Shown in pieces: positions 3,672 to 63,744 of a stretch of DNA of 64,000 nucleotides (position 1 is its first letter; every line of letters begins with the position of its first letter). The stretch comes from a virus (lineage: Duplodnaviria; Heunggongvirae; Uroviricota; Caudoviricetes), in IMG/VR virus record IMGVR_UViG_2713896899_000007, positions 1 to 64,000 of that record; one strand, given 5' to 3'. The notes beneath the pieces are model-generated. The model was not told the DNA's origin and searched no databases. It saw only the letters and a program-made list of their open reading frames with translations. The position numbers and the translations under genes are program-made.

Positions 3672-3763
3672 GTTGAATATGCTCCTTGATTTGGCGGGCT
3701 ATCCTTGCCCGCCATTAAGTAAGTACATACTTATTTTTACCGATGTAAATATTTTTTTCTACA

Positions 3764-10608: not shown

Positions 10609-10657
10609 CCTGTCAGCGCCACAATAATAGTAAATTAGTACTTACTTATCCAGATAC

Positions 10658-15622: not shown

Positions 15623-15878
15623 ATATTTGCATCAGTTGCTCTTTGGCGTCAGGGTCTGCCTTATCCTGGCTTGGATCGTAGACTTTATCTGTTACGACTG
15701 GTCTTCCAATCCTGAGTTGCAAACCCTCCATGAACGCCTTCACAGCCTCGCCATCCGCCTGGGACGCACGGGCGACTTGTAAGTTGCGGACATCCTCTTC
15801 CGCACGCAGACGGTCTATATTGCGACTGAGCATCCAGAACATCGTGAGAGGTATGTTCAATAGCTCTAATGGCGACAC
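15609..15878 (-). CDS. T segment of tail assembly chaperone, probably expressed as a G-T fusion by -1 frameshift
   Basis: reading frame is -1 relative to G and stays open across the G stop by my translation; track start is a GTG. Confidence 0.5.
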   Translation of the reverse strand: MSPLELLNIPLTMFWMLSRNIDRLRAEEDVRNLQVARASQADGEAVKAFMEGLQLRIGRPVVTDKVYDPSQDKADPDAKEQLMQIFGRG

Positions 15879-15958
15879 GGCGTAGTGAGCAACTACACGA
15901 CTGAAATAGAATCCGAGATCTATTGAGACGGTCCTTGTCCCGGATTCATCACGGGAAA

Positions 15959-16276
15959 TTACTTTGCCCCTTCGCCAGCCGCTTTTTCGTTTTCTTCATC
16001 AATCACTTCCATAGCGAAGGTGAAGATCTGCTGGAGTTGCGGAACAGTCAGTTTTTCAAGAATTTCGTCAGGTACTGAAGGGATAACCTTACGAACCAGA
16101 TCTGCATAAGCTGTCACTTGCTCAACAGGAGACATGTTCATGAGATCTTTTCCTTCCATCTGCTTGATGGAAACGAACAGACCTACCGTCATTTCAACGA
16201 TGGGATATTCCTGACCGCCAAATTTGATGCTTTTCTTCGGAGGCAGAATGGAATCTAGATCGAGTAATTTGGTCAT
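15959..16276 (-). CDS. tail assembly chaperone, G-like
   Basis: small acidic protein between major tail gene and tape measure. Confidence 0.55.
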   Translation of the reverse strand: MTKLLDLDSILPPKKSIKFGGQEYPIVEMTVGLFVSIKQMEGKDLMNMSPVEQVTAYADLVRKVIPSVPDEILEKLTVPQLQQIFTFAMEVIDEENEKAAGEGAK

Positions 16277-16331
16277 TGGTTAAAATCCTTTTAAAAGAGA
16301 GGCCCATCCTGAGCCTCTGCTTAATTACTGA

Positions 16332-17078
16332 TTAATCTGCGGGGTTAATCGTTACTGACTTAGTTGCCTTCTTACCACCGCTATTGCTGGTGAAGGAGAT
16401 ATTTGTAGAACCCTGCGCCACACCACGTACCAGACCCGTTTGATCTACCGTGGCCTTTTCCTGGTCTTCGGATTCCCAAACACCGGTTTTGTCTGCGGCA
16501 TCAGCTGGAGTGATTTCGGCTGTCAGTTGCACAGTTTCTCCAGCTTTTACGGTTGGAGATTCCGGTGAGATCGACACAGTTTTTACCGGTTTAGGGCCGC
16601 TCATTCTTCCCAGAACGCCTTCGTCATCAGGGTACGCACTGAACTGAACAGAGAACACACGAACATCATCAGACTGGTAAGTCATGGTGAAGTTACCTGC
16701 GGTCGCAGCTTTCGGGATAGTCAGAACGTAGTCGGTAGTGTCCTGCGGAGTCAGAACCAGCTCTTTGGCTACGTCGATCAGGTTGACACCCTGTGCGGAA
16801 GTGATGGTCACCGCATTGTCGTCTTCGTTCAGAGTAGACCCCGGCATCAGATCGACCATATTTTTCAACACAGACTCGGCCAGCGGCGCAGTAATGGTAA
16901 TGTTACGACCCTGCACCAGCTCGGACATAATTGTCTGGCCGTGCTGGTCGACGGTGACTTTCAGCGTTTCAGTGGCTACTTCAACCTGAACACCACCTTT
17001 GGTGTAACCCAAATCCACACCACCAAACGACACCTTACAGGCACCAAGTTTGATGTTTTTTACATGGGTATTAGACAT
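16332..17078 (-). CDS. major tail (tube) protein with C-terminal Ig-like (Big_2) domain
   Basis: position upstream of G; C-terminal Big_2-like segment; start moved to MSNTHVK, which has an AAGGAG RBS. Confidence 0.7.
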   Translation of the reverse strand: MSNTHVKNIKLGACKVSFGGVDLGYTKGGVQVEVATETLKVTVDQHGQTIMSELVQGRNITITAPLAESVLKNMVDLMPGSTLNEDDNAVTITSAQGVNLIDVAKELVLTPQDTTDYVLTIPKAATAGNFTMTYQSDDVRVFSVQFSAYPDDEGVLGRMSGPKPVKTVSISPESPTVKAGETVQLTAEITPADAADKTGVWESEDQEKATVDQTGLVRGVAQGSTNISFTSNSGGKKATKSVTINPAD

Positions 17079-17152
17079 TGATGGAAAACTCCTTTTTCCG
17101 TTAATTCTACGCATTCATTGCGCTAATGGTAAGTATATACTTACCGATTAAC

Positions 17153-17659
17153 TTAATTCAATAAATAGCCAGCAAATTCAACAGGAATGCCTGCTTCTAT
17201 TAATGCCCCATCATTTTTGGGATAAATGATTGGCATCGCCATCGGTCGTACAAGTCGAAAATAAACACCACCAGATTCCGTTTCCTCTACTGGAAGCATC
17301 TCAATGATTTTATTGGCTTTCTCAACCGTCGTAGTGATTGACGAACCACGCACAATGATTGTGAATGATTCGTGATAAAAGCCCTGTAGCTCATGATCGA
17401 TGCTGATGCCGGTATTTGGGTTAATAAGCAGGACGCCAGATTTCACATTGGCAGGCAAGTAGTGACAGAAAATGTCAGTCCCGACCGTGCCAATCTTTGC
17501 CTTCTGCATCAAACTTGCAAACGCTTCGATAAACACATTAACCTCTCGTAAAACCGGCTTTTCTGGCAGCCTCAAGAATCGCTTCTGAGAACTGCTTCTC
17601 GCTAATTTCCACCGCTCTTTCCAGAAAGTGTGGCCCAACACGGGGTTTAACACCGGCAA
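17153..17659 (-). CDS. hypothetical tail component (tail terminator position); start possibly internal at MQKAKIG
   Basis: ORF in the slot lambda U occupies; no motif recognised. Confidence 0.4.
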   Translation of the reverse strand: MPVLNPVLGHTFWKERWKLARSSSQKRFLRLPEKPVLREVNVFIEAFASLMQKAKIGTVGTDIFCHYLPANVKSGVLLINPNTGISIDHELQGFYHESFTIIVRGSSITTTVEKANKIIEMLPVEETESGGVYFRLVRPMAMPIIYPKNDGALIEAGIPVEFAGYLLN

Positions 17660-18011
17660 TTGGTGGGTTTGTCACGTTCTTCATTCGAGAAAGATAACCG
17701 AGTCGGTATTTACCCAGCTCCATGTACTTAGCATAGTCACCTACTTCTACGCCCGGATGCCCCTGACGTGGTTTTGCTCCAGACACAGAAAGCTCAATAC
17801 GCAGCCCTGAATAACCTTCTTTAATCACCCTGGCAAAGATGGCTGTCTCCAGAGATCCGGTTTCCAGCGGGGCCATTGCACGGCTGAGACGCTCAACCAA
17901 ACGCGCCAGCTTTTCCATGTCCCGAATAAGATATCGCTTAAATGCTTTCTGGCTGTTGTTGAGTCGATTCCCCGCACGTTTGAACTGATGCGCATCGTAT
18001 TTCAGACCCAT
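17538..18011 (-). CDS. hypothetical head-tail joining / tail completion protein
   Basis: 157-aa ORF between head and tail modules. Confidence 0.4.
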   Translation of the reverse strand: MGLKYDAHQFKRAGNRLNNSQKAFKRYLIRDMEKLARLVERLSRAMAPLETGSLETAIFARVIKEGYSGLRIELSVSGAKPRQGHPGVEVGDYAKYMELGKYRLGYLSRMKNVTNPPIAGVKPRVGPHFLERAVEISEKQFSEAILEAARKAGFTRG

Positions 18012-18346
18012 ATATTCGCCCCTACTTCAAGATGCCCTGGTCTTCCTCGTAGTCCCCAGCGGCGATGAACACTGGACACCTTTAATTTTTGACCTTCAAG
18101 GATCAGTACATCATCAAGTTGTACAGCCGCTCCCAAAGGGACAACTAACACAGCATCAAACAGCTCCAGACTCGCCTTACCACGACTACCAGAGCTATCA
18201 GCACGAACTGACGATTTCTCATTACTCTGTTCGAACTTAACCACGCCGACATTCGTCTTCCTGACGAATTGTAATTGCGCCTCACCGTAAACGTTCTTTG
18301 CGCCAAAGCGGTAGATCGCAATTTCTGTTTGCCATGAAATATTCAT
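18002..18346 (-). CDS. hypothetical head-tail adaptor protein
   Basis: start moved to MNISWQ, which has a GGGAGAG RBS; position in head-tail module. Confidence 0.4.
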   Translation of the reverse strand: MNISWQTEIAIYRFGAKNVYGEAQLQFVRKTNVGVVKFEQSNEKSSVRADSSGSRGKASLELFDAVLVVPLGAAVQLDDVLILEGQKLKVSSVHRRWGLRGRPGHLEVGANIWV

Positions 18347-18425
18347 GCTCTCTCCCTGTTGTTGTCGGTCGCTCTCATTACTGGCCAAAAAACCTTTCGA
18401 CCAAAAGTAAATAATGCGACTGGCG

Positions 18426-19259
18426 TTACGCACGGCGAACAATCATACGGTTGTTGATGTAACTGACCAGCAAGCGCCAGGTACTGCGAGCCACATGCAC
18501 GTTTGCAGCTTTGCCGGTACGGTACATGTTGGTTGTTTCACCGATGGACTCTGACAAAATGCCATCTTCTCGTGCTGCGGCAACATCATTGCCATTTGCG
18601 ATCTCACACGCTTCGTTGACAACGGCAAGCATCAACGCTTCTTTGAAGTAGTCAGGGAACTCTTCAAACTTCTCCTGCGTCATCTTTTCCCAATCGACTA
18701 AATCATGCCGGTACGCTCCATCTGCTCCCCACGGAATGTCATACACATTCAGCATATTTTGAGGGCGATCGTATCGGTCAAAGTCGATACGTAGAATTTT
18801 GCGGATTGAGAACGGTAAAGTTTTAATTCGTCTGGTAGCCTCAATGAGACGCTTGCGCATTAAGCCTTCACCATCCGACAGCAAAGTGTCCCCATTCAGC
18901 ATATCGATCGCCTGCATTTGAGCATCAGCGACAGTTGCAAACGACTGTTCTGGTATCGACAGTTCAAAACTATTCAGCAGAACATACATTTGCCGCTCTT
19001 CATGCGTCAGACCCGATGCAACAGCCTTCACAATGACGTACCGCAGATCGCGTTCTTTCTCAGAGAGCTGGTTATATTCAGCCGACACGACAACCGGAAT
19101 CGACATTTGACCGCTGGTAATTTCTAGCGGCTCGCCATCAACGAGAATAGCCCCGGTGCTGTCCTTTACTGTGTAGGTGGCAGATTCGATATCCAGCACG
19201 TTGAAGGCAAATGAAAGAGAAACAGCTTCACCGCTACGATACGAGTCGATCTGCGCCAT
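18426..19259 (-). CDS. hypothetical structural / head completion protein
   Basis: 277-aa ORF in head module. Confidence 0.4.
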   Translation of the reverse strand: MAQIDSYRSGEAVSLSFAFNVLDIESATYTVKDSTGAILVDGEPLEITSGQMSIPVVVSAEYNQLSEKERDLRYVIVKAVASGLTHEERQMYVLLNSFELSIPEQSFATVADAQMQAIDMLNGDTLLSDGEGLMRKRLIEATRRIKTLPFSIRKILRIDFDRYDRPQNMLNVYDIPWGADGAYRHDLVDWEKMTQEKFEEFPDYFKEALMLAVVNEACEIANGNDVAAAREDGILSESIGETTNMYRTGKAANVHVARSTWRLLVSYINNRMIVRRA

Positions 19260-19693
19260 TACTCACCGCCTTGTGCTTTCAGGATGCCTTCAATCATCTC
19301 GACAATTCCTTTCGCTTTGACACCAACCTGATTACCAATCACACGTAGACCGGCAATGCCTTCATTGTCTGCAATTGACTCCAACTCTTCTCGTGTGAAA
19401 GTCTGGATCTGTTTGGCCGGTTCATCTGGTGTCCCACGTTTCATTGGCACAATGTCAGGTGCTGCTGGCTCGGTAATCAGGTCTGCGGTCAACTCGCCAC
19501 GATCACTGTATGCGGCAGACGGAGAAACATTTTTGCCCTCGACTGTTGATGCTCGCATTGAGGCACAAATCCTTTGCTGATCGATAAAAGGCAACTCCGC
19601 TACGGACACCCCGTTCTCGAACTGAACGCCGCACAACATTCCCGAATAACCGGAAAATTGCGGTTCTAATAAAACAATTTTTGCTGGTTTCAT
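19259..19693 (-). CDS. hypothetical head-module protein
   Basis: 144-aa ORF, start/stop coupled to neighbours. Confidence 0.4.
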   Translation of the reverse strand: MKPAKIVLLEPQFSGYSGMLCGVQFENGVSVAELPFIDQQRICASMRASTVEGKNVSPSAAYSDRGELTADLITEPAAPDIVPMKRGTPDEPAKQIQTFTREELESIADNEGIAGLRVIGNQVGVKAKGIVEMIEGILKAQGGE

Positions 19694-19737
19694 AACGCAT
19701 TCTCTCTACATGGGCGGCTTTCGCCGCCCAATATTGA

Positions 19738-20658
19738 TTATTCCTTTGCAGCAGTGACTTCTACGGTCGCTGTCGCTTTGTGGCTACCATCTTGGGTAGT
19801 AACCTCGATTGTGGCAGTACCAGCCGCAACGCCAGTTACAACACCGGTTTCGCTATCCACCGTTGCAAATTCGGTATTTTTGGATTCCCAAGTAACGGTT
19901 TTATTTGTTGCTCCTGCCGGCTCGACATTTGCGGTCAGCTGAACAGTTTTGTTTGCCTCAACGGTTGTGCTATTTGGGTCGATTTCGACGCCGGTAACAG
20001 CCACAACAGGCGCAGTTACTTCCACCGTTGCAGTTGCCTTTTTGCTGCCATCTTGGGAAACGATCTCAATCGTCGCAGTGCCAACTTCTACACCAGTAAC
20101 GTTCCCGCTCTGGTCTACCGTTGCCTTATCTTCATTTTTGGAAGACCAGGTAACAGTCTTATTCGTCGCATTTGACGGCTGAACATTCGCTTTCAGACTG
20201 ACTGATTTCCCTTTCTCAACAGAGGTTGAGTCTGGCGTTACCGTTACGGATTGAACGGCTACCGGATTTACGGTGACTTCCACTGAAGCGGAAAGCTGGG
20301 TTTCCTGATCAGTTGCAGTAATTTTTACTTTGCCTGGGGCTACGCCAGTTACTAATCCAGTGCCGTTAACGGTTGCAATTTGATCATTGGCTGACTTCCA
20401 GGTGAATGAACTGGCACTCTTACCCATACTAATACCTGCACTAAGTTGAACAGTTTTCCCAACCAAAACTGATGGTGAAGCCGGAGTTATGTTTACGGAT
20501 TGGGAGAGGGGAACCGCCTGCAAACAAGCAGATAGCTGACTTTGTTGCCGCTCGGTTAAAGGTTCATCGGAGATAGAATTGGTAAATCCGGCACGGCACA
20601 TATGCCCCGTAAAATCCGAAAATGCCTCTTCCGTAATCTTCATCTTTTGTTCTGGCAT
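19738..20658 (-). CDS. Ig-like (Big_2) repeat protein, probable head decoration protein
   Basis: three tandem Big_2-like units (KTVTW...ATVD...TGV..GTATI); immediately after capsid gene. Confidence 0.6.
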   Translation of the reverse strand: MPEQKMKITEEAFSDFTGHMCRAGFTNSISDEPLTERQQSQLSACLQAVPLSQSVNITPASPSVLVGKTVQLSAGISMGKSASSFTWKSANDQIATVNGTGLVTGVAPGKVKITATDQETQLSASVEVTVNPVAVQSVTVTPDSTSVEKGKSVSLKANVQPSNATNKTVTWSSKNEDKATVDQSGNVTGVEVGTATIEIVSQDGSKKATATVEVTAPVVAVTGVEIDPNSTTVEANKTVQLTANVEPAGATNKTVTWESKNTEFATVDSETGVVTGVAAGTATIEVTTQDGSHKATATVEVTAAKE

Positions 20659-20731
20659 TTCTCGCTCCTACAAAAAGGGTGGGCGTATAGCCCACCCTTT
20701 AACATAGATAACTACCTATCTACTACACTGA

Positions 20732-22541: not shown

Positions 22542-24116
22542 TCACTCGTTCTCTTGAGTAGATGAGTCCCCATTCCCTCGGGGTTGATCTTGCCCGCTTT
22601 CTTGGGCTGCACCACGATCATAAGTAAGTGCTGACTTATTTTCAAGGGTATTTAGATCATTTTTTGGCGGAAAATTCAAGAGATCTTTATCAAATTCCTT
22701 TTTCATCGCCTCAGTAATGTTCGGGAAAATCTTCTCAATAAGCATTTCCATCTGGTGACGACGTACAGAGTCCGGTGCCTGAAGTAATGACAGTTTCTCG
22801 GCAACAGAAAATTCATCTGTAAGGCCACGAATATCGAAACTTTCTGGATACGCTATTAAAGAGTGGTCTTCGTCCAGATCTACCCCCATCCATTTCGCAA
22901 CCAGTAGCATGATTTGGCGTTCAGCCCTTTCCAGACGCTCTGCTTTTGTGACAAGCAAGCTATTTACACGCTGGAAGTCATACATTTTTGCGGCACCAGA
23001 TGAGTTATCGATTCCCTGTGCGTTGTCCTGCTTCGTTCGCTCACCAGCTACACCAACTGAATGGTAGATTTCGTTAATCACCGTCTTAATCGTAGTGATG
23101 ATCATCTGAGCTTGTTTCGGGTCTGGTGACAGATAAAACGGCTGGTTTCCACCTTCAGAATCGTAGGTGAAGACTCGCTTTGTGCCCATTTCAAGCACTT
23201 TAGTGTGGTTTTCATCACCAGGTAAAAGCGACTGTACCGGTATAGCCAACTGGCTAAATGTCTGATCCTGAATAATGGCATCAAGGTTTGACAGATAGTT
23301 TGCAACCGCACGATCAAGATAAGCGATATCATCGATCAACGATGGGCTGAAATACGGTGATTCACTTTCTCCAATACAATCAACAGGAAACACAGGAACT
23401 ACGCCGAGATTATGCTCACCGCTATCCTCTAAAATAACTTTTGCCTGACGGCGACCTGCTCCACCAGCGCCCTTCTTCACTTCCTCACGGAACAGATACC
23501 ACTCGTTTTGTGTCCACAGACGATAACGTTGGTATTCCTGACCTGTAGAAGTAAAAGGATCTGCGTCATCACGAGCGACTTCCACAATTAACGCCCACAA
23601 CATATTCCCGTCGTCGTCCCATGCCACATCCAGCATTTGCTGAGGTGAAATCCAGTAGGCGTAGGCGCGAGCATCTTTCTTTTTCTCGTCAGCTACTGAC
23701 TCAACATCACCACTCATCGTGCTATCGACAACAACCCATATGCGACCGTAAATAGACGACTGCAAATCAATAGCGGCCATAAATGAGTCAATAGAGGCAT
23801 TCTGGCGAGTCGCACGTTTCCAGAAATTGCGGATCTGCTCTGGTGCCTCTTCGATATTTCTATGAATGTCTTCTTTAAAGAGATATTTGTTGATGAGGTT
23901 TACCACCTCACGAGTGTGGTTGAAGCGATAAGCACGCTCAACTCGCTCCTTAAACTCCTGATCTCCCTCTTTAAAGTAACGAAAGATATTGTCTGTAAAC
24001 CAACCACGCCCGCCAGCGTAAGTGCTGGCGAGGAAGTCCCAATGTTCTTTTTTCTTTTCGTATTCCGGGTGGCGTCGCGCCACCAGATCCTTAATTTGTT
24101 TGTCGTTCAATTCCAT
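22542..24116 (-). CDS. putative portal protein
   Basis: 524-aa ORF directly after large terminase. Confidence 0.6.
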   Translation of the reverse strand: MELNDKQIKDLVARRHPEYEKKKEHWDFLASTYAGGRGWFTDNIFRYFKEGDQEFKERVERAYRFNHTREVVNLINKYLFKEDIHRNIEEAPEQIRNFWKRATRQNASIDSFMAAIDLQSSIYGRIWVVVDSTMSGDVESVADEKKKDARAYAYWISPQQMLDVAWDDDGNMLWALIVEVARDDADPFTSTGQEYQRYRLWTQNEWYLFREEVKKGAGGAGRRQAKVILEDSGEHNLGVVPVFPVDCIGESESPYFSPSLIDDIAYLDRAVANYLSNLDAIIQDQTFSQLAIPVQSLLPGDENHTKVLEMGTKRVFTYDSEGGNQPFYLSPDPKQAQMIITTIKTVINEIYHSVGVAGERTKQDNAQGIDNSSGAAKMYDFQRVNSLLVTKAERLERAERQIMLLVAKWMGVDLDEDHSLIAYPESFDIRGLTDEFSVAEKLSLLQAPDSVRRHQMEMLIEKIFPNITEAMKKEFDKDLLNFPPKNDLNTLENKSALTYDRGAAQESGQDQPRGNGDSSTQENE

Positions 24117-24142
24117 TTGAATAACCTTAGATAATTACTTAC

Positions 24143-25399
24143 CTATCTAGAACCACCAAGAATAACACGGTTTTTGACTGGATACCTACGATGTACTGGA
24201 TAGCCCAATGCGTCTGCACTATGCTCAATGCCACCTGTCTTATCCATATCTCGTGTTCCAGGCTTGTAGATGACTTTTTCCAGTGAATCAATCAAATGCT
24301 TGCACTTCGGATCGATATACAACCGGATATCTCCAGATGCGGTCATCAGCATTCGGTTAACAGCATTAACACGATCCGCAATTGGCGGGTGCTTTTTCGA
24401 ATAATCGACACGTAAGAATCCCTTCTCTTTGAAAATGTCGACGTCAGACTCCCCGCGAGCATGTTGGCGATAAGCACCTGCCGGATCTGGAAATACCGTT
24501 ATCTGTGATTTCCAGCGCCAGAAGCGTCTCTCAAGCTCATCACAAACCTCTGCCGTGTTAGAGGAAAAGAGCACCAATTCATCAATTGCCCATAGCTCAC
24601 CATTTGGCTGAGGTTGCAAAATTACTGAAGACATCGGGTCAATGTTGAAGTCCTGCCCTACCCATATAGGCAACCGAGGGTTGAACTGAAGCGGTTTTAC
24701 ATGCACGTTACGATCGAACGGGTAGTAAACGCGCCCGGACATGTTCTCAAAGCTCGCCAGGTACTCCTGAGCGAACGATTTCGGGTCCATATCGTTCTTA
24801 GCAGCTTCAATTTCCGCCGTAGGTACAAACGGAGAATCGGCAGTTACAAACTGCCAGCTCTTCCACTGTCCCTTTCTTTGCAGCTCTACGTTCTGGCCTA
24901 TAGTCCACAGTTTGTGAAATTCCGAGAAGCCTTTTGGCGTACCAATGATCAGTGCACCGCCGCGTGTCGATGAAAGAGTAGGTCGTAACACCTTGTACCA
25001 GGTGTCAGCCTTCATATCCTGAAATTCATCAAGCACTACAAAATGCAACGCTACGCCGCGCAGAGTGTCAGGCTTATCAGCACCTTTGAGGGCGATCTCC
25101 GAACCGTTCTTCAACACGATTGTCATCGTGGTGTCGTTCTTTTTCCTAACCCACTTACGAGGCAGAACTTCCTGTAGATCGTCCCACAAAATCTGGCGAG
25201 CCATCTGGTAAGTAGGAGCGACATACCAGACTCTTTGCTTTTTTTCCTTTGCCGCCGCACGAATAATAGTGGAGATCGACAACCGGGATTTTCCCCAGCG
25301 TCGACCAGCACAAACAACTTTAAATCGATGCGGAGACTGGAAGACTTTCATCTGTCCAGAATGCAGTTGCACAAGACTGAGCGAGGACGGGATTGCCAT
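24143..25399 (-). CDS. terminase large subunit
   Basis: N-terminal P-loop (CAGRRWGKS), acidic motif (VVLDEF), C-terminal nuclease-like region; gene order. Confidence 0.7.
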   Translation of the reverse strand: MAIPSSLSLVQLHSGQMKVFQSPHRFKVVCAGRRWGKSRLSISTIIRAAAKEKKQRVWYVAPTYQMARQILWDDLQEVLPRKWVRKKNDTTMTIVLKNGSEIALKGADKPDTLRGVALHFVVLDEFQDMKADTWYKVLRPTLSSTRGGALIIGTPKGFSEFHKLWTIGQNVELQRKGQWKSWQFVTADSPFVPTAEIEAAKNDMDPKSFAQEYLASFENMSGRVYYPFDRNVHVKPLQFNPRLPIWVGQDFNIDPMSSVILQPQPNGELWAIDELVLFSSNTAEVCDELERRFWRWKSQITVFPDPAGAYRQHARGESDVDIFKEKGFLRVDYSKKHPPIADRVNAVNRMLMTASGDIRLYIDPKCKHLIDSLEKVIYKPGTRDMDKTGGIEHSADALGYPVHRRYPVKNRVILGGSR

Positions 25400-26039: not shown

Positions 26040-26225
26040 CTAAAACACACAGAGCGCGTCCATGCGCTCTAAAACAACTTGTTTACTGCGTATGCTAACC
26101 AACTTGTTTTCTGGGGTGTTTAATTAGGTCTGGGCATGTCTTACTAAGCCTGCTTCCGTATATATTTAATAAGTTACTTATTATTTATATATACGGAAGC
26201 AGGTCTTTAAATAAGCTCCCAGACC
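26040..26225. promoter_or_regulatory. structured region upstream of terminase: short hairpin, motif-B-like element and a long imperfect palindrome; candidate late promoter and/or cos/pac region
   Basis: AGAGCGC...GCGCTCT hairpin; CCTGCTTCCGTATATA...TATATACGGAAGCAGG palindrome at ~26150-26205. Confidence 0.35.
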
Positions 26226-26227
26226 GA

Positions 26228-26494
26228 TTACATCACCAGTAACTTCGCTTTGGCTCGACCTAAAGTGGTTAACCCAAGAGTCCGGCGGTGATAGCGATTG
26301 TCACTGCGTTGGCGCGTATGCCCTTTCTCCACCAGCCCCTTTTTTATCAGAGCGCGAATTGAGAACTGAATACTTTGCTTGGTTGTCTTGTACGGCAAAA
26401 CTTCAAGCAATTCGTCCAGATCAAGTAGATGACCTCGCTCATAACCGAGATTGAGCGTTTTGATGATGTCCTTTTGTTTATCGGTTAACGTCAT
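26228..26494 (-). CDS. small basic protein, possible winged-helix DNA-binding protein
   Basis: 88 aa; last gene of the ParB/ABC/GNAT operon. Confidence 0.35.
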   Translation of the reverse strand: MTLTDKQKDIIKTLNLGYERGHLLDLDELLEVLPYKTTKQSIQFSIRALIKKGLVEKGHTRQRSDNRYHRRTLGLTTLGRAKAKLLVM

Positions 26495-28056: not shown

Positions 28057-28721
28057 GCAGCCATCTCCCCGGAAGAGATCTTCTCCGCATATGCCACAAA
28101 TGCGTCTACCCCGCTTTCTCCCGTCATTTCTTCCATGTGGGCAAGCAAATCACCAACAACAATGGCAGAGCCAGCAGGGAGCGTTTTAAAGCCCAATACG
28201 TCGACAACACGTACTTCTTCCGCTGCAACTTCACGACTGATCTCGGTGTGTTCATCCTTCTGTCGTTTAGTTTCTTCGCCAAGATCGATAACTAGCGAGT
28301 CGGTGTCCATTTCTTCTGTCATACTGCCAACGAGAACATTCAACTCACGCTCTTCAAAGCCGAAAACCTCGATATCGTCCAGAACAAGCGACTCAAGCTC
28401 TTTCTGTAGCTTAATTGCATCGTAATCAATGCTGGCAAGTCGGTTATCTTCAAGGCGCTTCGCACGAACCTCGTCATCACTGAGATCATCGCGAACAATA
28501 ACCGGTACGCGCTCAAGTCCAGCAAAAATTGCAGCCTCACGGCGGCCGTGGCCAGTAATAATTACGTCGTTCTTATCGACCGTAATTGGCTGGTCAAATC
28601 CGCGCTTTTTAATGGCTGCGGCTAGATCTCGGATCTGCTGTTCATCATGCTTTTTGGCATTCATCTCATAGGGAATAAGATCTGCCGGGTCGCGATATAC
28701 GATTTCAAACTTTTTGGTCAT
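28053..28721 (-). CDS. ParB/Srx-fold (ParB-like nuclease domain) protein
   Basis: ITGHGRREAAIFAGLERVPVIV motif; start moved to MTKKFEIVY, which has an AAGGAG RBS. Confidence 0.7.
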   Translation of the reverse strand: MTKKFEIVYRDPADLIPYEMNAKKHDEQQIRDLAAAIKKRGFDQPITVDKNDVIITGHGRREAAIFAGLERVPVIVRDDLSDDEVRAKRLEDNRLASIDYDAIKLQKELESLVLDDIEVFGFEERELNVLVGSMTEEMDTDSLVIDLGEETKRQKDEHTEISREVAAEEVRVVDVLGFKTLPAGSAIVVGDLLAHMEEMTGESGVDAFVAYAEKISSGEMAA

Positions 28722-29401
28722 TACATACGCTCCTTGTAGTAGTCGACCAGCCACACCAGAGCCTCACCAGCGTTCTCCATTTCATTACCGGTGTTAATAG
28801 CCTGCTCTTTGATGATGTTTTTTATGGTTTCTGCAACACGATCTGACGCATCGAAAGTTACTTTGAAGCGCATGGTCTGATGTTCCGCACCCACACGTTC
28901 GGTTTTCTCCCGTTTGTCGGTATCGACAGGCTCATCACTACCACGAGACAACGCCTCCAGTGCTTCAAGGTCGATTGCCGCCTCTTTTGCTAAAACCATC
29001 GAGATTTCGTCGTCATACGGGGCGATTTCAGACAGTTGATAGTCAAGTTCTGACTGAATTTCTTCAATGAAGCGTTGCAATGCGATTTGGTCGTCTTCAC
29101 CGTATCGCTCGTTGTCCACCAGTGACATCTGTTTTGCCACGACATCGCTAATTTTGCCCACAGAAAGCACCGGAACCGTTGAAATTCCTTGCTCAATAGC
29201 AGCACGCCAGCGATGTTCGCCGCCGAGGATTTCAAAAAATCCATCTTCAAGTTCACGAGCCAAAATTGGCTTAAAAAAGCCCAATTTTTCGATAGAACCT
29301 TTCAGTTTTTCAAAATTCTGCGCACCAACCGAATTGGTGTTCCAGGTATTCGGGCGAAGGTTGGCAACATCAACCTGCAAAATCGTGATTTTTACATCCA
29401 T
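28721..29401 (-). CDS. ParB/Srx-fold (ParB-like nuclease domain) protein
   Basis: GGEHRWRAAIEQGISTVPVLSV motif; track start is GTG, moved to next ATG (MDVKITIL). Confidence 0.7.
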   Translation of the reverse strand: MDVKITILQVDVANLRPNTWNTNSVGAQNFEKLKGSIEKLGFFKPILARELEDGFFEILGGEHRWRAAIEQGISTVPVLSVGKISDVVAKQMSLVDNERYGEDDQIALQRFIEEIQSELDYQLSEIAPYDDEISMVLAKEAAIDLEALEALSRGSDEPVDTDKREKTERVGAEHQTMRFKVTFDASDRVAETIKNIIKEQAINTGNEMENAGEALVWLVDYYKERM

Positions 29402-29483
29402 TTTATTGCTACAATCCACTAAGTAACTGCTTACTTATTATAATAGCCAAATAACATACAAAAGGCACTAAGGAAAGAGGTTT

Positions 29484-37687: not shown

Positions 37688-37813
37688 TTCACTCTCCGTA
37701 GTGTCTTGGTTATTTTTCTATTTTATAGCCGTAAGTATGTACTTACAATACAAAAAAGCCCCGTAAGGATGGCGGGGCTGTCGTACTGTCGACTAATTAC
37801 CACTTGCACATTA

Positions 37814-38155: not shown

Positions 38156-38278
38156 TGGCGTAAATAATACCAGTAAGAAAACGGCTACAAAGCATAATGA
38201 TCAGGTGCATGATCGATATGCAGGTTCCTCCCTGCGGCTATAGAGAAATTAAGCCAGCATTGCTGGCTTTGGTTGAGG

Positions 38279-40476: not shown

Positions 40477-40539
40477 TTCAACCACTCCAAAACAAGTTGT
40501 TTTCTTATGTGGCTTATTATCTCTAACAACAAAAGGCAG

Positions 40540-41367: not shown

Positions 41368-41397
41368 TATTTTGTTAATACTGTTACTCTAACTGAT

Positions 41398-51572: not shown

Positions 51573-51633
51573 GTGTTTTTCTCTTATCGTTTAGTTACTA
51601 CATTCTTACACAAATTAAGTAAGTATTTACCTA

Positions 51634-53319
51634 TCATTTAACGCGTTTGAAAACGTATACGCTGACTGTGATCCCTGTGTCTTCAAACTCGTTGGTAAAC
51701 GACTTCCCTCTGGCATAAACGTAATTATCCATCGTCATCCAGTCCAGTATTGGCGCAGTGCCCGGCAATACTGCTACAAGACGCCCGCCGACTTTCAGAT
51801 GCCCCAGCGCAGCCATCGTGTGCTCTCTATGACGACCAAGCGAGTACGGCGGGTTCATAACGATTTTGTCGAACTGATAACCTGCGTTGTCCTCAGACCA
51901 CTTTATGAAGTCGCAGCAAATCGTGTTCGTATACCCTTTTCCACGCAGGATATCAGCGAAGAGAGGTGCGATTTCTATGCAGGTAACATCTTCCAGATCG
52001 GCGTTAATATAGGCCAGAAGATCCCCACGTCCGGCTTGAGGCTCCAGCAGCTTCTCACCAGGCTTCAATTCAGTGGCTCTGGCAACGTACTCAGCAATCA
52101 AGCGTGGGGTAGGGTAGAACTGGTGTGATTTTGTATCCGGTATTAAACCGGTAGCCACAATCGTATTTAGCGTATGGCCGATGTCATACGGGAACTGCCA
52201 GTGCTTTTTCTCCTGCACGCCGCCAATGAAGCTCAGTGTGCGCTCAAGCTCTTCCACCTGCGACTTCTGGAGAGCTGAATCAGAGAAGTACCATACGCCT
52301 TTGTCTTTGCTCAATCGCCCGTCACGAAGCGCAGTGCGAACCGGCACGGAGATCGTCTTCTGGATTAACCCGAACTGCTTTGGTGCCCGTGTTTTTGGCG
52401 CAGTGCGGCATGGCGCGGGGATTGCAGCAGGCATACTGTAAGCCAGCACCTCATTCAACTTCCAGGCCACGTCAGGATGTATTTCAAAGTGAACGTTGCC
52501 GTTCTTGAACATCTTCACGCGCATCAGATTTCCATCGACGTTCATCCAGTCACCGGTCTGGCAGTCGTTTGCCCGATACGCAGCTGATAGCACCTCAGCA
52601 GTGCGGTTGATGGTAATAAATTCTTTGTGCGCGAAGAAATGAAGCAAGACACGCAGATCGTCGATGTAGTCCTCTTTGCGATAGTTCACGCTAACGCTGT
52701 CCCGCCAGAAATCAGAAATGCAGTCAGCGATTATCAGCCGCTCGCTGAAACCGTTTGTCTTATTCGTCTTGTGCGCAGGACTCAGCGCCTTAAACAAGCC
52801 ATACACGCGCTCAGAGAGATATTTGTGCCTGTCATTCAGCAAATTAAGCATCGTGGGTATGACCGTTTCTGCTTTGAACTCCGGTACACCAACGAACTCT
52901 TTAACCTTCATCTGGTAGCCGGTTCTGTCAGTTTTGATGACTTCCTGTTTGCCCTCTATAAACTGCTCGCGCCACTCATCTCGACGGGAAGCTGGCATGA
53001 TCAGCAAAACGTTAGTCATGTCCGTGACCTTCCTCCAGTACTCGGCCCAAATATTCTGTTTCACCCATTCCAGATCGACTTTATCCAACCAACCTCGATT
53101 TAAACGCGAGCGATCTTCATCTGGTCGATGGTTTAGTCGCAGCAGGCGATTAATCATGTTGTGGCGTTCGTCGCCATAAACGAAGTCGTGTACCTGATAC
53201 ATGAAGGCGATCTCTTTCTCGCACTCGGCCACGATTTCGTGGATGACATTCATTTCCTGACGATAGTCGATAGCCGTGTTTGAGCTGGCATCGTCGATGA
53301 TGGAAAGGGCTGTATTCAT
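51634..53319 (-). CDS. N6-adenine-type methyltransferase with ~400-aa N-terminal domain of unknown function
   Basis: C-terminal motif I LLEPQAGRGDL and motif IV NPPY about 45 aa apart. Confidence 0.6.
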   Translation of the reverse strand: MNTALSIIDDASSNTAIDYRQEMNVIHEIVAECEKEIAFMYQVHDFVYGDERHNMINRLLRLNHRPDEDRSRLNRGWLDKVDLEWVKQNIWAEYWRKVTDMTNVLLIMPASRRDEWREQFIEGKQEVIKTDRTGYQMKVKEFVGVPEFKAETVIPTMLNLLNDRHKYLSERVYGLFKALSPAHKTNKTNGFSERLIIADCISDFWRDSVSVNYRKEDYIDDLRVLLHFFAHKEFITINRTAEVLSAAYRANDCQTGDWMNVDGNLMRVKMFKNGNVHFEIHPDVAWKLNEVLAYSMPAAIPAPCRTAPKTRAPKQFGLIQKTISVPVRTALRDGRLSKDKGVWYFSDSALQKSQVEELERTLSFIGGVQEKKHWQFPYDIGHTLNTIVATGLIPDTKSHQFYPTPRLIAEYVARATELKPGEKLLEPQAGRGDLLAYINADLEDVTCIEIAPLFADILRGKGYTNTICCDFIKWSEDNAGYQFDKIVMNPPYSLGRHREHTMAALGHLKVGGRLVAVLPGTAPILDWMTMDNYVYARGKSFTNEFEDTGITVSVYVFKRVK

Positions 53320-55536: not shown

Positions 55537-55684
55537 GTGGACTCCATCCAGTGTCAGAAAGAGTTGCGGCTGGCGATTGCCAGCCGCCTTTCTCGTTCCA
55601 TCCTGGAACTGTGTCTTACCGACACATTGTCATCCTGACGCCGATAAGATACATGATTTAAAATAATAGGTAAATACTTACTTA

Positions 55685-56275
55685 CTAATTGTTATAAACA
55701 AAACCAATATCTTTCTTGTGAGGCATATCTGCTGCTGAAAAAGCTGCGATCTTCGCGAGTCGATCACATATTTCATTTTCACGATGCCCGGCGTGACCTT
55801 TAACCCACTTCCAGCGAACATTATGTCGACTTGCGGCCTCATCCAGACGCTTCCACAGATCAACATTCTTTACCGGTTTTTTGTCAGAAGTCATCCATCC
55901 ATTGCGTTTCCACCATTTCATCCACTGTGTCATGCCGTTTTTCAGATACTGGCTATCAGAGTGCAAAATAACGTTGCATGGATATTTCAAACGCTCCAGC
56001 CCGATAAGTGCCCCCATCATCTCCATGCGGTTATTGGTGGTGCTATGAAAACCATCTGAGAACTCGCGTTCCTCACCACGATACTGGAGAACTATACCGT
56101 AACCGCCCGGGCCACCCGGATTTTTAAGGCAAGAGCCATCACTGAAGATTTTCACGGTTTTAAGCTGGGGATTGAACTCTACGACAGGCGTTGTGGGATT
56201 GGTGCGGGGAGAATTTTTGTTTTTGTCTTTTTTGCGAGTTTTTGCTTGCGATCGGGCTGGTGTCTTCGACGTCAT
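55685..56275 (-). CDS. ribonuclease HI with basic N-terminal extension
   Basis: FSDGSC...TTNNRME...HSDSQY...[12 protein letters not shown] match RNase HI; track ORF extends to 56329. Confidence 0.8.
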
Positions 56276-56339: not shown

Positions 56340-56857
56340 AATAATTATTAAAATAAACAAATTACTTCCCAGTACAGGTTTTTATAAACCTGAACTGAAC
56401 GAACGAAGTGAGTGAAGTTCACCTCGAACGAAGTGAGAGGTTGTCTTTTCAGGTAATACTCTCCCAGGGAGGTGAGTATAAAATTCCTCACCAACCTGGT
56501 CGTTTCATAACCTGAAAAGCTATGGTCTAAGTCTACTGCCAGCTTAGACTTGGGAAGTTATGGATGACAGCACCCCAGAACCGAGATCTTCCCACACTTT
56601 ATGAAGGGGAGTACTGGATTCAACCTCTCGAAACACCCCAGACTCGACAATCATAAAGTGACCCTTGTCTCTGCTCACTTTGGTTCCCCCTTCCCCGACA
56701 CCTAAACGGCACCGGTTCTACGCTGGTAGTGAGCTTTTTTAAACCTGACGCCAGTGACGCTTACCCCCACCCATCAGGTCGAGTCTCCAGTCTATGACTG
56801 GAAACTATCAGATCTTAGCACTTACAATTCATCTTATGAATAGTTTGTACTTATCTA
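56340..56857. other. ~520-bp ORF-free structured region (direct repeats and hairpins); candidate ncRNA or cis-acting site
   Basis: no ORF of 60 aa or more; GAACGAAGTGAG direct repeat; several 6-7-bp stem-loops. Confidence 0.3.
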
Positions 56858-57088
56858 TCATTTCGATTGATTATTTTCTCGACCATGTAGTTGAACATTC
56901 AAGGCAAACACCTCGTTGATCAACTCACCTAAAAGCTGTTCAACAAGTTCGCGATGCTCCCCAAGATGCAAGCACTTAATTGCCCATTCGTACAAGTTGA
57001 AAGCCTGCTCGCGATCTTTCATCATTTCACGAGCCTTAGCCAGAAAATCGCTCTCTACGAGCGCAACAACATTGGTCGGGTATGACAT
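56858..57088 (-). CDS. hypothetical small protein
   Basis: 76-aa ORF. Confidence 0.4.
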   Translation of the reverse strand: MSYPTNVVALVESDFLAKAREMMKDREQAFNLYEWAIKCLHLGEHRELVEQLLGELINEVFALNVQLHGRENNQSK

Positions 57089-57273
57089 GTTAGTTTTCCT
57101 TAAAGTGGTTCATAAAATCGATTTTAAAGCGTCTGAGAAGGGGTTCTAGTGGATTCTGTAGTGGTGTTCAGGTCTGGGAGTCTCTGATACAAAACAGCCT
57201 GCTTCCGTATATTAATAATTAATATGTAGTTATTTATATACAGAAGCAGGTTAATTACACTCGCCAGAACAAA

Positions 57274-57867: not shown

Positions 57868-58049
57868 CTTCTTTCTCGATAGGTAAGTGATTACCTATTT
57901 TTGCATTTGATTTTATGTATGGCAATCAAATAAAACACGCCAGAAATGCGAACAAGAAGCTCTCTGGCGCGTTTTTGTGGTGCTGGGTATGGGTTAGCTT
58001 ACCCAGCACTATAAAGCTCTCTATGGGCTTTATTTTCAGTAGGGGAACG

Positions 58050-61646: not shown

Positions 61647-62730
61647 GAATCAGAATATCGTCCCATTTGAAATCATCCAGCTCAGACCATTCATGAGGGA
61701 AAATAACGACCGGATCTGAATGCTCTGGAGCCTGTCGTTTCATTAGCTCACACACACTTTCCATGTGGTTATTGTATAAATGCACGTCAAAGCCAAAATG
61801 CACAAATGCACCGGCCATGTGACCCGTAATCTTCGCGAGAAAATGAGTGAGAATGCCATAGCCAGCAATATTGAATGGCATACCAACAAAAGTGTCTACG
61901 CTACGCTGTACGAGGCAGGAGTTGAGGATGCGTTTGGGGATTCCAAGTTCATCCAGTTCAGTTTCAGTAACACTGCCGTCCATCTCCAGATCGTATAGCA
62001 TCTTGGTGTAGATAGACTCGTAACCGAGGCGACTGTGTTGAAGACCAATGTCTGTTGCCATCGTTAAACGAGTTTCAAAATCAAGCTCACGACTCCACAA
62101 AGAGAAGGCAAAGTGGCAAGGTGGCAGTTTCATATCCTCAAGCTCGCCTACGTTCCATGCGTTAAGCATGATGCGACGATCGGTAGGGTTCGTGCGCAGT
62201 GTATCGACAATACGCTGTAGCTGATCGATTTCACGGGACAGCACTACGCGATCTTCACTGATACCCAGGTATCCCTCGACTTTGTACCCGCGTTCACGGA
62301 AAGTATCGATCTTGCTCAGATATTCACTATGGCTCACGATGCGGGTATCTTCCCATCGACGCCACTGCTTACCGTAAACCGGCCCCAAATCGCCATTCTC
62401 ATCGGCCCATGCATCCCAAATTTTAACGCCGTTATCCTTGAGAAATTGGATGTTGCCCGTGCCTTTCAGATACCACTCAAGTTCGACAAGTAGTGGCTTA
62501 AGATTTACCGCCTTTCCAGAAATAAGCGGCACAGTCCCACCAGTAAGCATGTAGTAAGAGGGAACGTAGCAGGTGCTTAAAGTACCAGTGCCTGTGCGAT
62601 CATCAGCCTGCACGCCGCTTTTAAGCACCGTCTCAATAACTTTTGCATACGATGCGTTTGTTACCTGACCGTTCGTATGCTCACGATTCAAAAGGAGTGA
62701 CACAAAAACCTCACAAAGATAAGTAACCAC
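61600..62730 (-). CDS. thymidylate synthase family enzyme (ThyA-like) with two large insertions
   Basis: DRTGTGT, WADENGDLGPVYGKQWRRW, PPCHFAFSLW (catalytic Cys), MPFNIAGYG (Asn, uracil-type), DVHLYNNH. Confidence 0.8.
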   Translation of the reverse strand: MVTYLCEVFVSLLLNREHTNGQVTNASYAKVIETVLKSGVQADDRTGTGTLSTCYVPSYYMLTGGTVPLISGKAVNLKPLLVELEWYLKGTGNIQFLKDNGVKIWDAWADENGDLGPVYGKQWRRWEDTRIVSHSEYLSKIDTFRERGYKVEGYLGISEDRVVLSREIDQLQRIVDTLRTNPTDRRIMLNAWNVGELEDMKLPPCHFAFSLWSRELDFETRLTMATDIGLQHSRLGYESIYTKMLYDLEMDGSVTETELDELGIPKRILNSCLVQRSVDTFVGMPFNIAGYGILTHFLAKITGHMAGAFVHFGFDVHLYNNHMESVCELMKRQAPEHSDPVVIFPHEWSELDDFKWDDILILGYDPLPWIKVPVAV

Positions 62731-62874
62731 TTATTCATTGCGTGAGTTTACATTCATTGAGAGAACAAGACCAGACAGATAAAAAAATGGTGGCCATAGG
62801 CCACCAAAAACGAATAGTTGTTTCAGAAATTTAACGCGCCAACGCAATATACACAGATAGATAACTACCTACAA

Positions 62875-63744
62875 TTATTTTTTGATCATTCCGTACATTG
62901 CTGAGGCTTTAGCTTGCTCAACAAAGGAGGATAAATCGACATCACTATAGGTTGGAGACTTCAGAATCTTTCCATCGGAAATTCGAAAACCGATCATCTT
63001 ATCGGTGCCATCAGCATGGCGAAATCCCAGGTCAGAAGAGTCGTATTTGCAGTTGGCCACAGCATGGCGACGCTCTTCGGCATCTGCAGGCCATAATTTT
63101 GTCATGTTGGACCGATGAATTTCGCCAACCAGCTCGACGACATTGATACCGAGGAAATCAGCCAGTCGATAGGTCATCATGCACGCCACATAGATTTTGT
63201 TCATTACACGGCGCAGTTCCTGAATCAGCTCAGAATCCTTAACAGTCTTGTTCTCAAGTTTATCTGCCAGCTCTTCGAGCATACATGACGCCTCACGAGC
63301 TTCCTGAAATGGCATTGCCATATCATCGAAAACAGTGTTACCAGGCACAAAAATTGTCTGCATAAAGCGATCAATGCTCTGTTCCTGCGTGTAATAGGTC
63401 ATGCCGGTAGAAATACCACCTTTGATGGCGACCATCGTACCAACACCAACGTATAAAAAGTCGGCCATTGCATCCAGCAGTTGCTCAATATCCCCATTCA
63501 TTGCGGCTGGAATACCTTCCACTACAGCTTCTTCATGAATCAGGCTTGCACGGAGACGAAGCAGCTCTGGTGTCGGCATAACGCGTCTCGGATGCTGGAA
63601 GAGTTCATGAAACTGATCGACCATCTTGTAAATACTTTCAGTGGCTACACCATGGCCTTCATGCAACTCATATGGTTCTGGCTTAAATCCAATGAGTCGA
63701 TCGGTGGCAAGTTTCAGGTGGTCAGTCAGTTTGGTAAAGTTCAT
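62875..63744 (-). CDS. hypothetical protein, possible all-alpha NTP pyrophosphohydrolase (MazG-like), low confidence
   Basis: helical protein with EE-containing segments; placement in nucleotide-metabolism cluster. Confidence 0.3.
   Translation of the reverse strand: MNFTKLTDHLKLATDRLIGFKPEPYELHEGHGVATESIYKMVDQFHELFQHPRRVMPTPELLRLRASLIHEEAVVEGIPAAMNGDIEQLLDAMADFLYVGVGTMVAIKGGISTGMTYYTQEQSIDRFMQTIFVPGNTVFDDMAMPFQEAREASCMLEELADKLENKTVKDSELIQELRRVMNKIYVACMMTYRLADFLGINVVELVGEIHRSNMTKLWPADAEERRHAVANCKYDSSDLGFRHADGTDKMIGFRISDGKILKSPTYSDVDLSSFVEQAKASAMYGMIKK

Follow-up and report, generated by a model that had tools for sequence, protein, structure and literature searches.

The 64,000-nucleotide window analysed here (positions 1–64,000 of the IMG/VR virus record IMGVR_UViG_2713896899_000007) belongs to an SSU5-type phage-plasmid and contains 16 good copies of a palindromic element, motif A, nearly all of them located in the gaps in front of genes. 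Motif A is very likely the DNA binding site of a symmetric regulator, which is encoded by the element itself and controls transcription of the lytic genes. That the sites together form a multi-operator repressor regulon, keeping the lytic genes repressed in the plasmid state, would have about even chances of being correct, as judged from the sequence and its relatives.

Positions 14000–20000 of the window share 97.8% identity with Escherichia phage Cyrano (pLF82, OV696614) and 81% with Salmonella phage SSU5. A tblastn search with the Cyrano proteins places the window in the reverse-complement orientation of the Cyrano record, spanning the start of that record. Most window genes are carried on the minus strand, and the contents include virion genes, a ParB-ABC operon, an accessory block with MetRS and MinD-like genes, and part of a nucleotide-metabolism module. 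The similarity to Cyrano and SSU5 together with this gene content therefore identifies the window as part of an SSU5-type phage-plasmid. An earlier note on this DNA had described a prophage with a metG-apbC block; the block is present, whereas the identity to Cyrano and SSU5 speaks for a phage-plasmid and not a prophage. The genomes used for motif comparison were Cyrano, SSU5, and Klebsiella pJN2-26 (enteric), Acinetobacter pAYP-A2, and an Aeromonas caviae plasmid; the large terminases of the last two are 59.6% and 53.6% identical to that of the window. The phage collection contained 12 close relatives and none at intermediate distance, and the distant relatives were taken from the plasmid collection.

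The full consensus of motif A is the 20-bp palindrome ATAAGTAAGTACTTACTTAT, and the shorter core recognized in the earlier note forms part of it. The copy flagged there, GGTAAGTATATACTTACC at 17128–17145, is indeed a perfect 18-bp palindrome. The motif is far more frequent than expected for the base composition: GTAAGTANNTACTTAC (up to 3 mismatches) has 18 matches in the window against 1.43 expected, and none of 100 shuffled sequences reached 18. Likewise, the 14-mer TARGTA-NN-TACYTA (up to 1 mismatch) occurs 16 times in the window (0.1 expected), 27 times in Cyrano, 33 times in SSU5, and 39 times in pJN2-26. At many sites two 14-mer matches overlap at a distance of 4 bp, because the complete consensus is the 20-bp palindrome. 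A weight matrix of 22 positions, trained on the three related genomes, finds 14–17 sites in the window at thresholds of 9–13 bits, compared with 0–2.2 in shuffled sequences, and 31–43 sites per full genome in Cyrano, SSU5, and pJN2-26 at corresponding positions. The matrix is symmetric across 20 bp and thus does not show the asymmetry of the P1 and L5 repressor operators.

All 12 places listed in the earlier note were recovered by the matrix, together with four further copies (22619–22640, 56838–56859, 57217–57238, and 62718–62739). Intergenic DNA makes up only 11.6% of the window but holds the centres of 15 of the 16 sites (binomial p ~1e-13); the statement that every copy is intergenic thus holds with one exception, the copy at 22619–22640, which lies inside the 3' end of the portal open reading frame (ORF). 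In addition, the copy assigned to the front of gene M actually precedes gene L. Copies are found on both sides of the MetRS/MinD accessory block, as described, with no good copy from 37751 to 51589. No description of motif A was found in full-text literature searches on the motif sequence, on operators, on SSU5 regulation, and on palindromes of pHCM2/pMT1.

Motif copies are located at the same gene junctions in Cyrano, SSU5, and pJN2-26. Over 36 orthologous site pairs from the three genomes, the identity within the motif is 0.84, compared with 0.56 and 0.50 in the adjacent 20-bp flanks (Wilcoxon p 1e-5 and 2e-7), and these alignments indicate that motif A is under purifying selection. The copy at 3714 has orthologous copies at Cyrano 22447 and SSU5 21936, the copy at 10629 has them in the three genomes, and the identity in SSU5 and pJN2-26 is 95–100% for the copy at 22619 and 91% for the copy at 55665. 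The conservation extends to the distant relatives: pAYP-A2 contains about 30 copies of TAGTAAGCGCTTACTA and the Aeromonas caviae plasmid 26 matches to AGTAA-N4-TTACT (up to 1 mismatch), in both cases again upstream of genes. The GTAA...TTAC arms are constant across the relatives, while the central and outer bases vary. The conservation at orthologous junctions and in distant relatives therefore marks the motif as an old, selected feature of the whole family.

The two halves of the palindrome vary independently. At the symmetric positions 5 and 18, the pairings A-T (16), A-C (14), G-C (14), and G-T (12) occur without covariation, and mismatches across paired positions are balanced between the G-U type (55) and the A-C type (44). 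RNA folding at the motif predicts only weak hairpins (-0.8 to -8.2 kcal/mol), none of them with a U tract. The independently varying halves and the weak hairpins therefore point to a DNA site for a symmetric protein; the pattern fits two identical subunits, each reading one half-site on double-stranded DNA, and not selection for base pairing. An intrinsic terminator, an element of the repetitive extragenic palindromic (REP) type, and an RNA hairpin were rejected on the same grounds. The motif, read as (A/T/C)AGT-N8-ACT(T/A/G), is similar in format to the LexA (SOS) box CTGT-N8-ACAG but differs from it in the bases.

Motif copies overlap predicted sigma-70-like hexamers of the gene strand with a frequency well above random expectation. 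At the flagged site, TTGAAT-18-TATACT is found on the gene strand with its -10 hexamer at the palindrome centre, and in a second match, TTACCA-17-TAGAAT, the -35 hexamer is formed by the right arm; the hexamers TTGAAT/TTGAAC and TATA(T/C)(A/T) recur at this site in Cyrano, SSU5, and pJN2-26. The copies at 10629 and 22619 form the spacers of TGGATA-17-TATTAT and TTGAAA-17-TATGAT, respectively, the latter (10 of 12 matches) being the tied best promoter-like match in the 20–40 kb region. The copy at 37730 (GTAAGTACATACTTAC), which matches the core of the earlier note with 0 mismatches, has its left arm at the -35 position of TTGTAA-17-TAAAAT, whereas the Dam copy (ATAGGTAATCACTTACCTAT) comes directly after TTGCCA-17-AAAAAT, a match with a TG, which places the motif at about +1. 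In the 82-bp region between the UvsW and ParB operons, a single copy is located beside overlapping TATAAT hexamers facing both directions; relative to the ParB operon the motif lies at +1, and relative to the UvsW operon it precedes the -10 hexamer.

Across the window, sigma-70-like matches are depleted relative to shuffled sequences (11 vs 23.2, 24 vs 32.3, and 18 vs 29.4 in three 20-kb segments), which suggests selection against stray host promoters; despite this overall depletion, 6 of 27 gene-strand promoter-like matches overlap motif copies. Among 77 sites from three genomes, strong promoter matches are found 53 times on the gene strand vs 22 times on the opposite strand, and the starts of the -10 hexamers cluster at motif positions -2, 19, 22, 27, and 36. 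The -10 offset differs by site, and what the motif covers therefore also differs: +1, the spacer, or the -35 hexamer. Such varying offsets favour a repressor operator, since an activator that contacts the polymerase would tolerate them poorly. An information profile over about 100 sites shows no fixed -35 or -10 hexamer in the motif flanks, which are AT-rich and nearly symmetric; T19 and A20 stand out strongly and A23 and T24 have a frequency of about 53% each, giving a -10-like TAnnnT, but the mirror flank is much alike. Palindromy, conservation, independent halves, and the overlap with sigma-70-like hexamers are thus consistent with the earlier suggestion of a regulon under one dimeric regulator, or of promoters with an overlapping operator.

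Per-gene RNA-seq data are available for Cyrano in E. coli LF82, from lysogeny broth (LB) and macrophage samples (PMC9928086, S1 Table). In the LB lysogen the genes behind motif copies are near background, with 1 of 27 above the authors' cutoff vs 15 of 96 other genes. Many dispersed copies stand before lytic operons and few of the genes behind them are expressed in lysogeny, as a multi-operator regulon would predict, although the expression trend has p = 0.19. Individual expression jumps coincide with sites at the tail-tube gene, CYRAN_56, and CYRAN_60. The operon encoding ParB, the ABC protein, and the winged-helix protein is essentially off, the log2(FPKM+5) value of 2.32 for ParB (CYRAN_119) corresponding to zero fragments per kilobase per million (FPKM). 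This operon, with the motif at +1, is silent while the divergent UvsW operon is expressed, which is most simply explained if the site in the 82-bp region is occupied in the lysogen.

A single symmetric, probably dimeric, regulator encoded by the phage-plasmid would bind motif A as a DNA operator. Its copies, about 16 in the window and 31–43 per genome, front virion, lysis, replication, recombination, and nucleotide-metabolism genes, and overlap or adjoin sigma-70-type hexamers at varying offsets, over the -10 and +1 positions, in the spacer, or over the -35 hexamer. In the plasmid state, the regulator would occupy these sites and block host RNA polymerase at many small lytic promoters simultaneously, whereas its inactivation would switch on the lytic gene set. 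We infer both the sign of the control (negative) and the identity of the regulator.

Four proteins are candidates for binding motif A: an Xre regulator encoded outside the window, a possible ribbon-helix-helix protein, a MarR-like winged-helix protein, and a ParB/Noc-like protein (the last three are listed in Table 1). As repressor, the Xre-type CYRAN_45 and the 92-aa protein are the strongest candidates; both are expressed in the lysogen (96 and 114 FPKM, respectively). CYRAN_45 adjoins the integrase and has a weak match to Pfam HTH_19. Its own promoter contains a core copy, GGTAAGTGCTTACC, just past the -10 hexamer, and homologues are present in 865 plasmids, including Acinetobacter. In the Aeromonas relative, a motif copy is located 16 nt before the start of an Xre-type gene unrelated to CYRAN_45. 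The 92-aa protein has syntenic counterparts in five of five genomes, with weak mutual similarity. Its sequence pattern is possibly that of a ribbon-helix-helix protein, with sub-threshold Pfam matches to this fold only for the Acinetobacter and Aeromonas counterparts, and its structure model is poor (predicted local distance difference test, pLDDT, 56).

The lytic isolate SSU5 (42600–42760) does not have a segment of about 6 kb that is present in the Enterobacter plasmid NZ_CP134668 (21000–30600), to which it is 99% identical on the flank. The segment encodes PhoH, Gp49, glutaredoxin, the YafO toxin, the integrase, the Xre regulator, and a small ORF, and its absence probably explains the virulent behaviour of SSU5. 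The missing Xre gene of SSU5 was considered as an argument against the Xre candidate and set aside, because the 99%-identical plasmid retains the integrase-regulator module; as the gene is missing through this difference, the intact sites of SSU5 are uninformative on the candidate.

The 88-aa protein has a confident AlphaFold2 model (pLDDT 82), which Foldseek matches to MepR, ZitR, and MarR at template modelling (TM) scores of 0.70–0.76, and a weak profile match to the N-terminal domain of LexA (E 8e-4, probability 25%). Homologues are encoded in all five motif-bearing genomes, and those of the Acinetobacter and Aeromonas relatives occupy the corresponding position. As the lysogen contains almost no mRNA of this gene, the role of an activator or late regulator suits the protein better than that of a maintenance repressor. 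The ParB/Noc-like protein matches Pfam ParB_N and aligns to Spo0J (1vz0) over residues 13–160, including the DNA-binding region. It was rejected as a lysogenic silencer, as its gene has zero reads in the lysogen.

Table 1 Motif A copies, candidate binding proteins, and other elements (window positions unless another record is named)
Feature	Position	Strand	Context	Score
Flagged copy, core GGTAAGTATATACTTACC	17128..17149		49 bp upstream of tail-tube gene (16332–17078, minus)	20.6
Copy	3714..3735		42 bp upstream of tail-fibre gene (144–3671, minus)	26.4
Copy	10629..10650		20 bp upstream of tail gene L (9877–10608, minus), downstream of M	24.5
Copy	20703..20724		Between major capsid gene and Ig-like decoration gene	17.7
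Copy	22619..22640		Inside portal ORF 3' end, 98 bp upstream of next gene (21633–22520)	24.1
Copy	24126..24147		9 bp upstream of portal start codon; 3' end overlaps ribosome-binding site	23.3
Spacing variant AATAAGTAACTTATT	26168..26189		Loop of large hairpin element, upstream of small terminase gene	16.5
Copy	29418..29439		82-bp divergent region between UvsW-like helicase operon (plus) and ParB-like operon (minus)	22.7
Copy GTAAGTACATACTTAC	37730..37751		After terminator-like hairpin, 42 bp upstream of small gene (37292–37687)	14.6
Copy	51614..51635		41 bp upstream of Ead-like gene (50868–51572)	24.6
Copy	55665..55686		128 bp upstream of small gene (55042–55536)	27.4 (best in window)
Weaker copy	56838..56859		~160 bp upstream of 44-codon ORF (~56544–56678); right half degenerate	18.0
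AT-rich variant, membership in motif A doubtful	57217..57238		Loop of second large hairpin element	18.4
Copy ATAGGTAATCACTTACCTAT	57878..57899		10 bp upstream of Dam methylase start codon	26.0
Copy	62718..62739		14 bp upstream of ThyX start codon	19.7
Copy	62856..62877		End of MazG-like gene, 152 bp upstream of ThyX	15.0
92-aa candidate binder, possible ribbon-helix-helix	31046..31324	plus	After UvsW-like helicase	
88-aa MarR-like winged-helix candidate	26228..26494	minus	Last gene of ParB-ABC operon, just upstream of small terminase gene	
ParB/Noc-like candidate	28721..29401	minus	N-terminal ParB domain and helix-turn-helix region	
Tail-tube hairpin	17109–17123	minus	Starts 4 nt past tail-tube motif copy	
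Tail-tube hairpin regions in related records	L001 9039–9087; L004 (SSU5) 9088–9136; L007 47157–47206			
AAACAANTTGTTT sites (a)	26072–26084, 26097–26109, 36294, 37234, 38137, 38621, 39812, 40490			
AAACAANTTGTTT sites (b)	40541, 41411, 45349, 50424, 53332, 54046, 54775			
~100-bp hairpin element, first copy	26115–26237		Arms 26115–26165 and 26187–26237	
~100-bp hairpin element, second copy	~57170–57290			
FljA-type gene	33202–33726		Strand opposite to lytic genes	

Several observations weigh against a repressor regulon of this kind. CYRAN_45 is only 56–66% identical among lineages that carry the same motif, its putative recognition helix differs between them, and no homologue was detected in the Aeromonas relative. 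The TAnnnT hexamer stands at the fixed positions 19–24 in about half of the sites, and the Acinetobacter copies are flanked by TATAAT or TAATAT, both as expected of an activator-dependent promoter. Moreover, several copies are located upstream of terminator-like hairpins or abut a ribosome-binding site, where a local promoter is uncertain. The contrast in expressed genes (1 of 27 vs 15 of 96) does not reach significance, the expression jump across sites in the LF82 macrophage RNA-seq is not significant either (mean +0.35 vs -0.05 log2, p = 0.57), and the UvsW operon is expressed although the motif lies just upstream of its -10 hexamer.

The palindrome could instead act as an activator-dependent promoter element, replacing the -35 hexamer and being bound in lytic growth by a phage-encoded activator, as Lpa does in phage P1; we regard this as possible but doubtful. 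Lysogeny would then need only that the activator be kept off, and the best candidate is the 88-aa winged-helix protein, whose gene is silent in lysogens as expected of a lytic activator, directly precedes the small terminase gene in the way that lpa precedes pacA, and encodes a recognition helix nearly invariant among the motif-sharing enteric lineages in addition to being kept in all five motif genomes. No Lpa homologue was found, however, either by tblastn of the window, Cyrano, SSU5, and pJN2-26 (best E ~1) or by profile comparison of Lpa with the 88-aa family (hhalign E 0.21). The P1 late promoters (AAGTNACTT-N4-TANNNT) use the same AAGT/ACTT half-sites as motif A, and the absence of a conserved -35 hexamer upstream of the motif, the strong T19/A20 with the half-frequent A23/T24, and the hexamers behind the Acinetobacter copies agree with this model, as does the single site flanked by outward-facing -10 hexamers in the UvsW/ParB region of Acinetobacter. 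The geometry agrees less well: the palindrome centre and the candidate -10 hexamer are 7.5 bp apart in enteric genomes, 6.5 bp apart in Acinetobacter, and 9 bp apart in P1, well-scoring promoters are found at five different offsets, and the near-symmetric signal in the flanks is what a mere lengthening of the palindrome would give. The motif lies on top of the -10 or +1 position in three cases (the flagged site, the ParB operon, and the Dam site), two conserved copies are located upstream of terminators, and at least six copies end at the ribosome-binding site, which a transcript starting downstream would not contain. Repressor and activator could also share the sites, a repressor in the plasmid state and the 88-aa protein in lytic growth binding the same palindrome at promoters with no -35 hexamer, with activation possibly bidirectional as at the UvsW/ParB region. 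We consider such a shared switch unlikely; if true, it would be a genome-wide competition of the CI/Cro type at about 35 sites, similar to P1 Lpa in logic and not in ancestry.

Proteins other than a dedicated repressor or activator, or RNA itself, might be responsible for the conserved palindrome. ParB-family sites are palindromes of 13–16 bp, and the element encodes a protein with a ParB domain and a helix-turn-helix region, which is conserved in every motif-carrying relative and has a motif copy in front of its own operon; loading of this protein at the palindromes, as for KorB/ParB sites, would silence or organise the plasmid. Its mRNA is nevertheless absent from overnight LB lysogens, in which the lytic genes are silent and the plasmid is stable at about 5.5 copies per cell, and it is therefore neither the silencer nor the partition protein in that state. 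To our knowledge motif A also bears no resemblance to parS, the Noc site, or the KorB operator, and we hold this explanation to be improbable. A host transcription factor through which the phage-plasmid senses the host state, and which the Enterobacteriaceae have in common but Acinetobacter and Aeromonas have in another form, would account for a motif that is identical in the Escherichia, Salmonella, and Klebsiella elements and differs in the other two genera, and the half-sites resemble what we take to be NarL/RcsB-type heptamers, as a lead only. Yet the GTAA...TTAC arms are constant over three bacterial families with differing regulators, which an element-borne regulator explains more easily, the motif shares its conservation with several DNA-binding proteins encoded by the element, and we know of no enterobacterial factor with this consensus; a host factor is thus very improbable. 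Hardly to be expected is a function as mRNA hairpin in processing, stabilisation, or translational control, for example as an operator of the FljA-like protein. The copies do lie in transcribed gaps, often directly 5' of a ribosome-binding site, and an FljA-type gene is present (Pfam Flag1_repress), but the lack of covariation and of a G-U excess over A-C, together with the weak folds, speaks against pairing, and the FljA-like gene was not found in the Acinetobacter relative by tblastn. A repressor operator therefore remains our preferred reading of motif A.

Some copies show further local features. A terminator-like hairpin (20697–20681) comes after the copy at 20703, an arrangement kept in Cyrano, SSU5, and pJN2-26, and the 14-mer TAGATAACTACCTA is common to this copy and the one at 62856. 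The spacing variants of the TAAGT-N-ACTTA type in hairpin loops, at 26168 and 57217, may be a feature distinct from motif A. Next to the tail-tube copy, a 5-bp hairpin would form the 5' end of the TTGAAT-18-TATACT transcript; its pairing is kept through two-sided changes in four of five pairs over three lineages, and it may be a 5'-terminal, mRNA-stabilising hairpin. The 44-codon ORF downstream of the weaker copy at 56838, a homologue of CYRAN_81, is 93–95% conserved. In the lysogen it is expressed at 117 FPKM amid silent neighbours, and a small RNA or small protein that serves maintenance could be encoded here.

Another palindrome, AAACAANTTGTTT, is likewise dispersed over the window, with 15 matches (up to 1 mismatch) vs 0.36 expected. 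Its copies lie 18–47 bp before start codons and are extended asymmetrically on the upstream side (ACAC..AAGA). They populate the accessory block, from which motif A is missing, and in Cyrano copies also stand before the genes for the small terminase, the helicase, and NrdB. Each enteric genome has 17–20 copies, against 3 in the Acinetobacter plasmid and 0 in the Aeromonas plasmid. In addition, the window contains two copies of a hairpin element of about 100 bp, composed of TCTGGGAG..ACCTGCTTCCGTATATA, an AT-rich loop with TAAGT-N-ACTTA, and then TATATACGGAAGCAGG..CCCAGACC. Cyrano, SSU5, and pJN2-26 have three copies each, one of them just upstream of the small terminase gene, and the element could be a packaging, origin, or partition site. 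The FljA-type gene encodes a full-length 'repressor of phase-1 flagellin' (Pfam PF03614, E 5e-81) and is expressed at 18 FPKM in the lysogen; no counterpart was detected by tblastn in the Acinetobacter relative or among the regulator matches obtained for the Aeromonas one. Within the virion module, the chief divergence from Cyrano is the tail-fibre gene, with only about 190 residues of the 1341-aa Cyrano fibre aligning, which suggests a swapped host-range determinant. The Acinetobacter plasmid pAYP-A2 encodes a sigma-70 family sigma factor (18800–19465) between a MoxR-like ATPase gene and dnaE, for which no counterpart was found among the Cyrano proteins by tblastn.

SSU5-type phage-plasmids are common, and the family includes plasmids of the Salmonella Typhi pHCM2 and Yersinia pestis pMT1 types. 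About 800 plasmid records from Escherichia, Klebsiella, Enterobacter, Salmonella, Yersinia, and Citrobacter match the large terminase of the window at 80% identity or more, and a published study describes these elements as able to carry resistance genes (PMC9600943). Full-text searches on the motif, its operators, and SSU5 regulation found no literature on how the elements are silenced as plasmids and switch to virus production. A single conserved operator before nearly every lytic transcription unit would be a handle for finding the master regulator. Moreover, motif A provides a means to annotate transcription units in hundreds of plasmids and to build induction reporters. It offers a useful regulatory map and not a new principle, as P1 C1, the L5 stoperators, and RK2 KorB are earlier examples of operators scattered in this way.

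Among these systems, P1 is likewise a phage-plasmid of about 100 kb, in which one repressor, C1, acts on many dispersed operators that overlap sigma-70 promoters; the P1 record annotates them at ref, mat, ssb, c4, kilA-repL, and lpa. C1 acts as a monomer on asymmetric operators of 17 bp, whereas motif A is a 20-bp palindrome, and P1 late genes use the separate activator Lpa, whereas motif A precedes early-type and structural genes alike. The late promoters in the P1 record consist of a 9-bp '-22 region', 4 bp, and a -10 hexamer, and read AAGT(G/T)ACTT-N4-TANNNT. They resemble motif A in an AAGT/ACTT palindrome just 5' of a -10 hexamer, the lack of a -35 hexamer, many copies before structural genes, and a small regulator gene beside the packaging genes, lpa being next to pacA. 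They differ in that the P1 box has 9 bp at a fixed 4 bp from the -10 hexamer, while motif A has 14–20 bp and no fixed distance; the half-sites are spaced by 0, 4, or 8 in motif A vs 1 in P1, a spacing found only in two or three hairpin-loop variants. A fixed -10 hexamer of the P1 type is thus not seen in motif A, where TAnnnT is present in about half of the sites and at 7.5 bp instead of 9.

The repressor gp71 of the mycobacteriophages L5/Bxb1 binds about 24–34 stoperators in short intergenic gaps of early and late operons and silences the whole prophage. The dispersed intergenic location before early and late operons resembles that of motif A, but the stoperators are asymmetric 13-bp sites that act in an orientation-dependent manner by blocking elongation, whereas the symmetric motif A has a tendency to lie over promoter hexamers. 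RK2 KorB, with 12 OB operators, offers a palindrome about once per 3–5 kb before many plasmid operons and a ParB-family protein encoded on the element; here the ParB-like gene is unexpressed in the plasmid state and the site sequences are unrelated. Finally, MarR-family dimers bind through winged helices to palindromes of 16–20 bp over the -35, -10, or +1 positions, and the element encodes a predicted MarR-like fold, but the 88-aa protein is minimal, has no MarR dimerisation helices, and is silent in lysogens, and a regulon of about 35 sites would be unusual for the MarR family.

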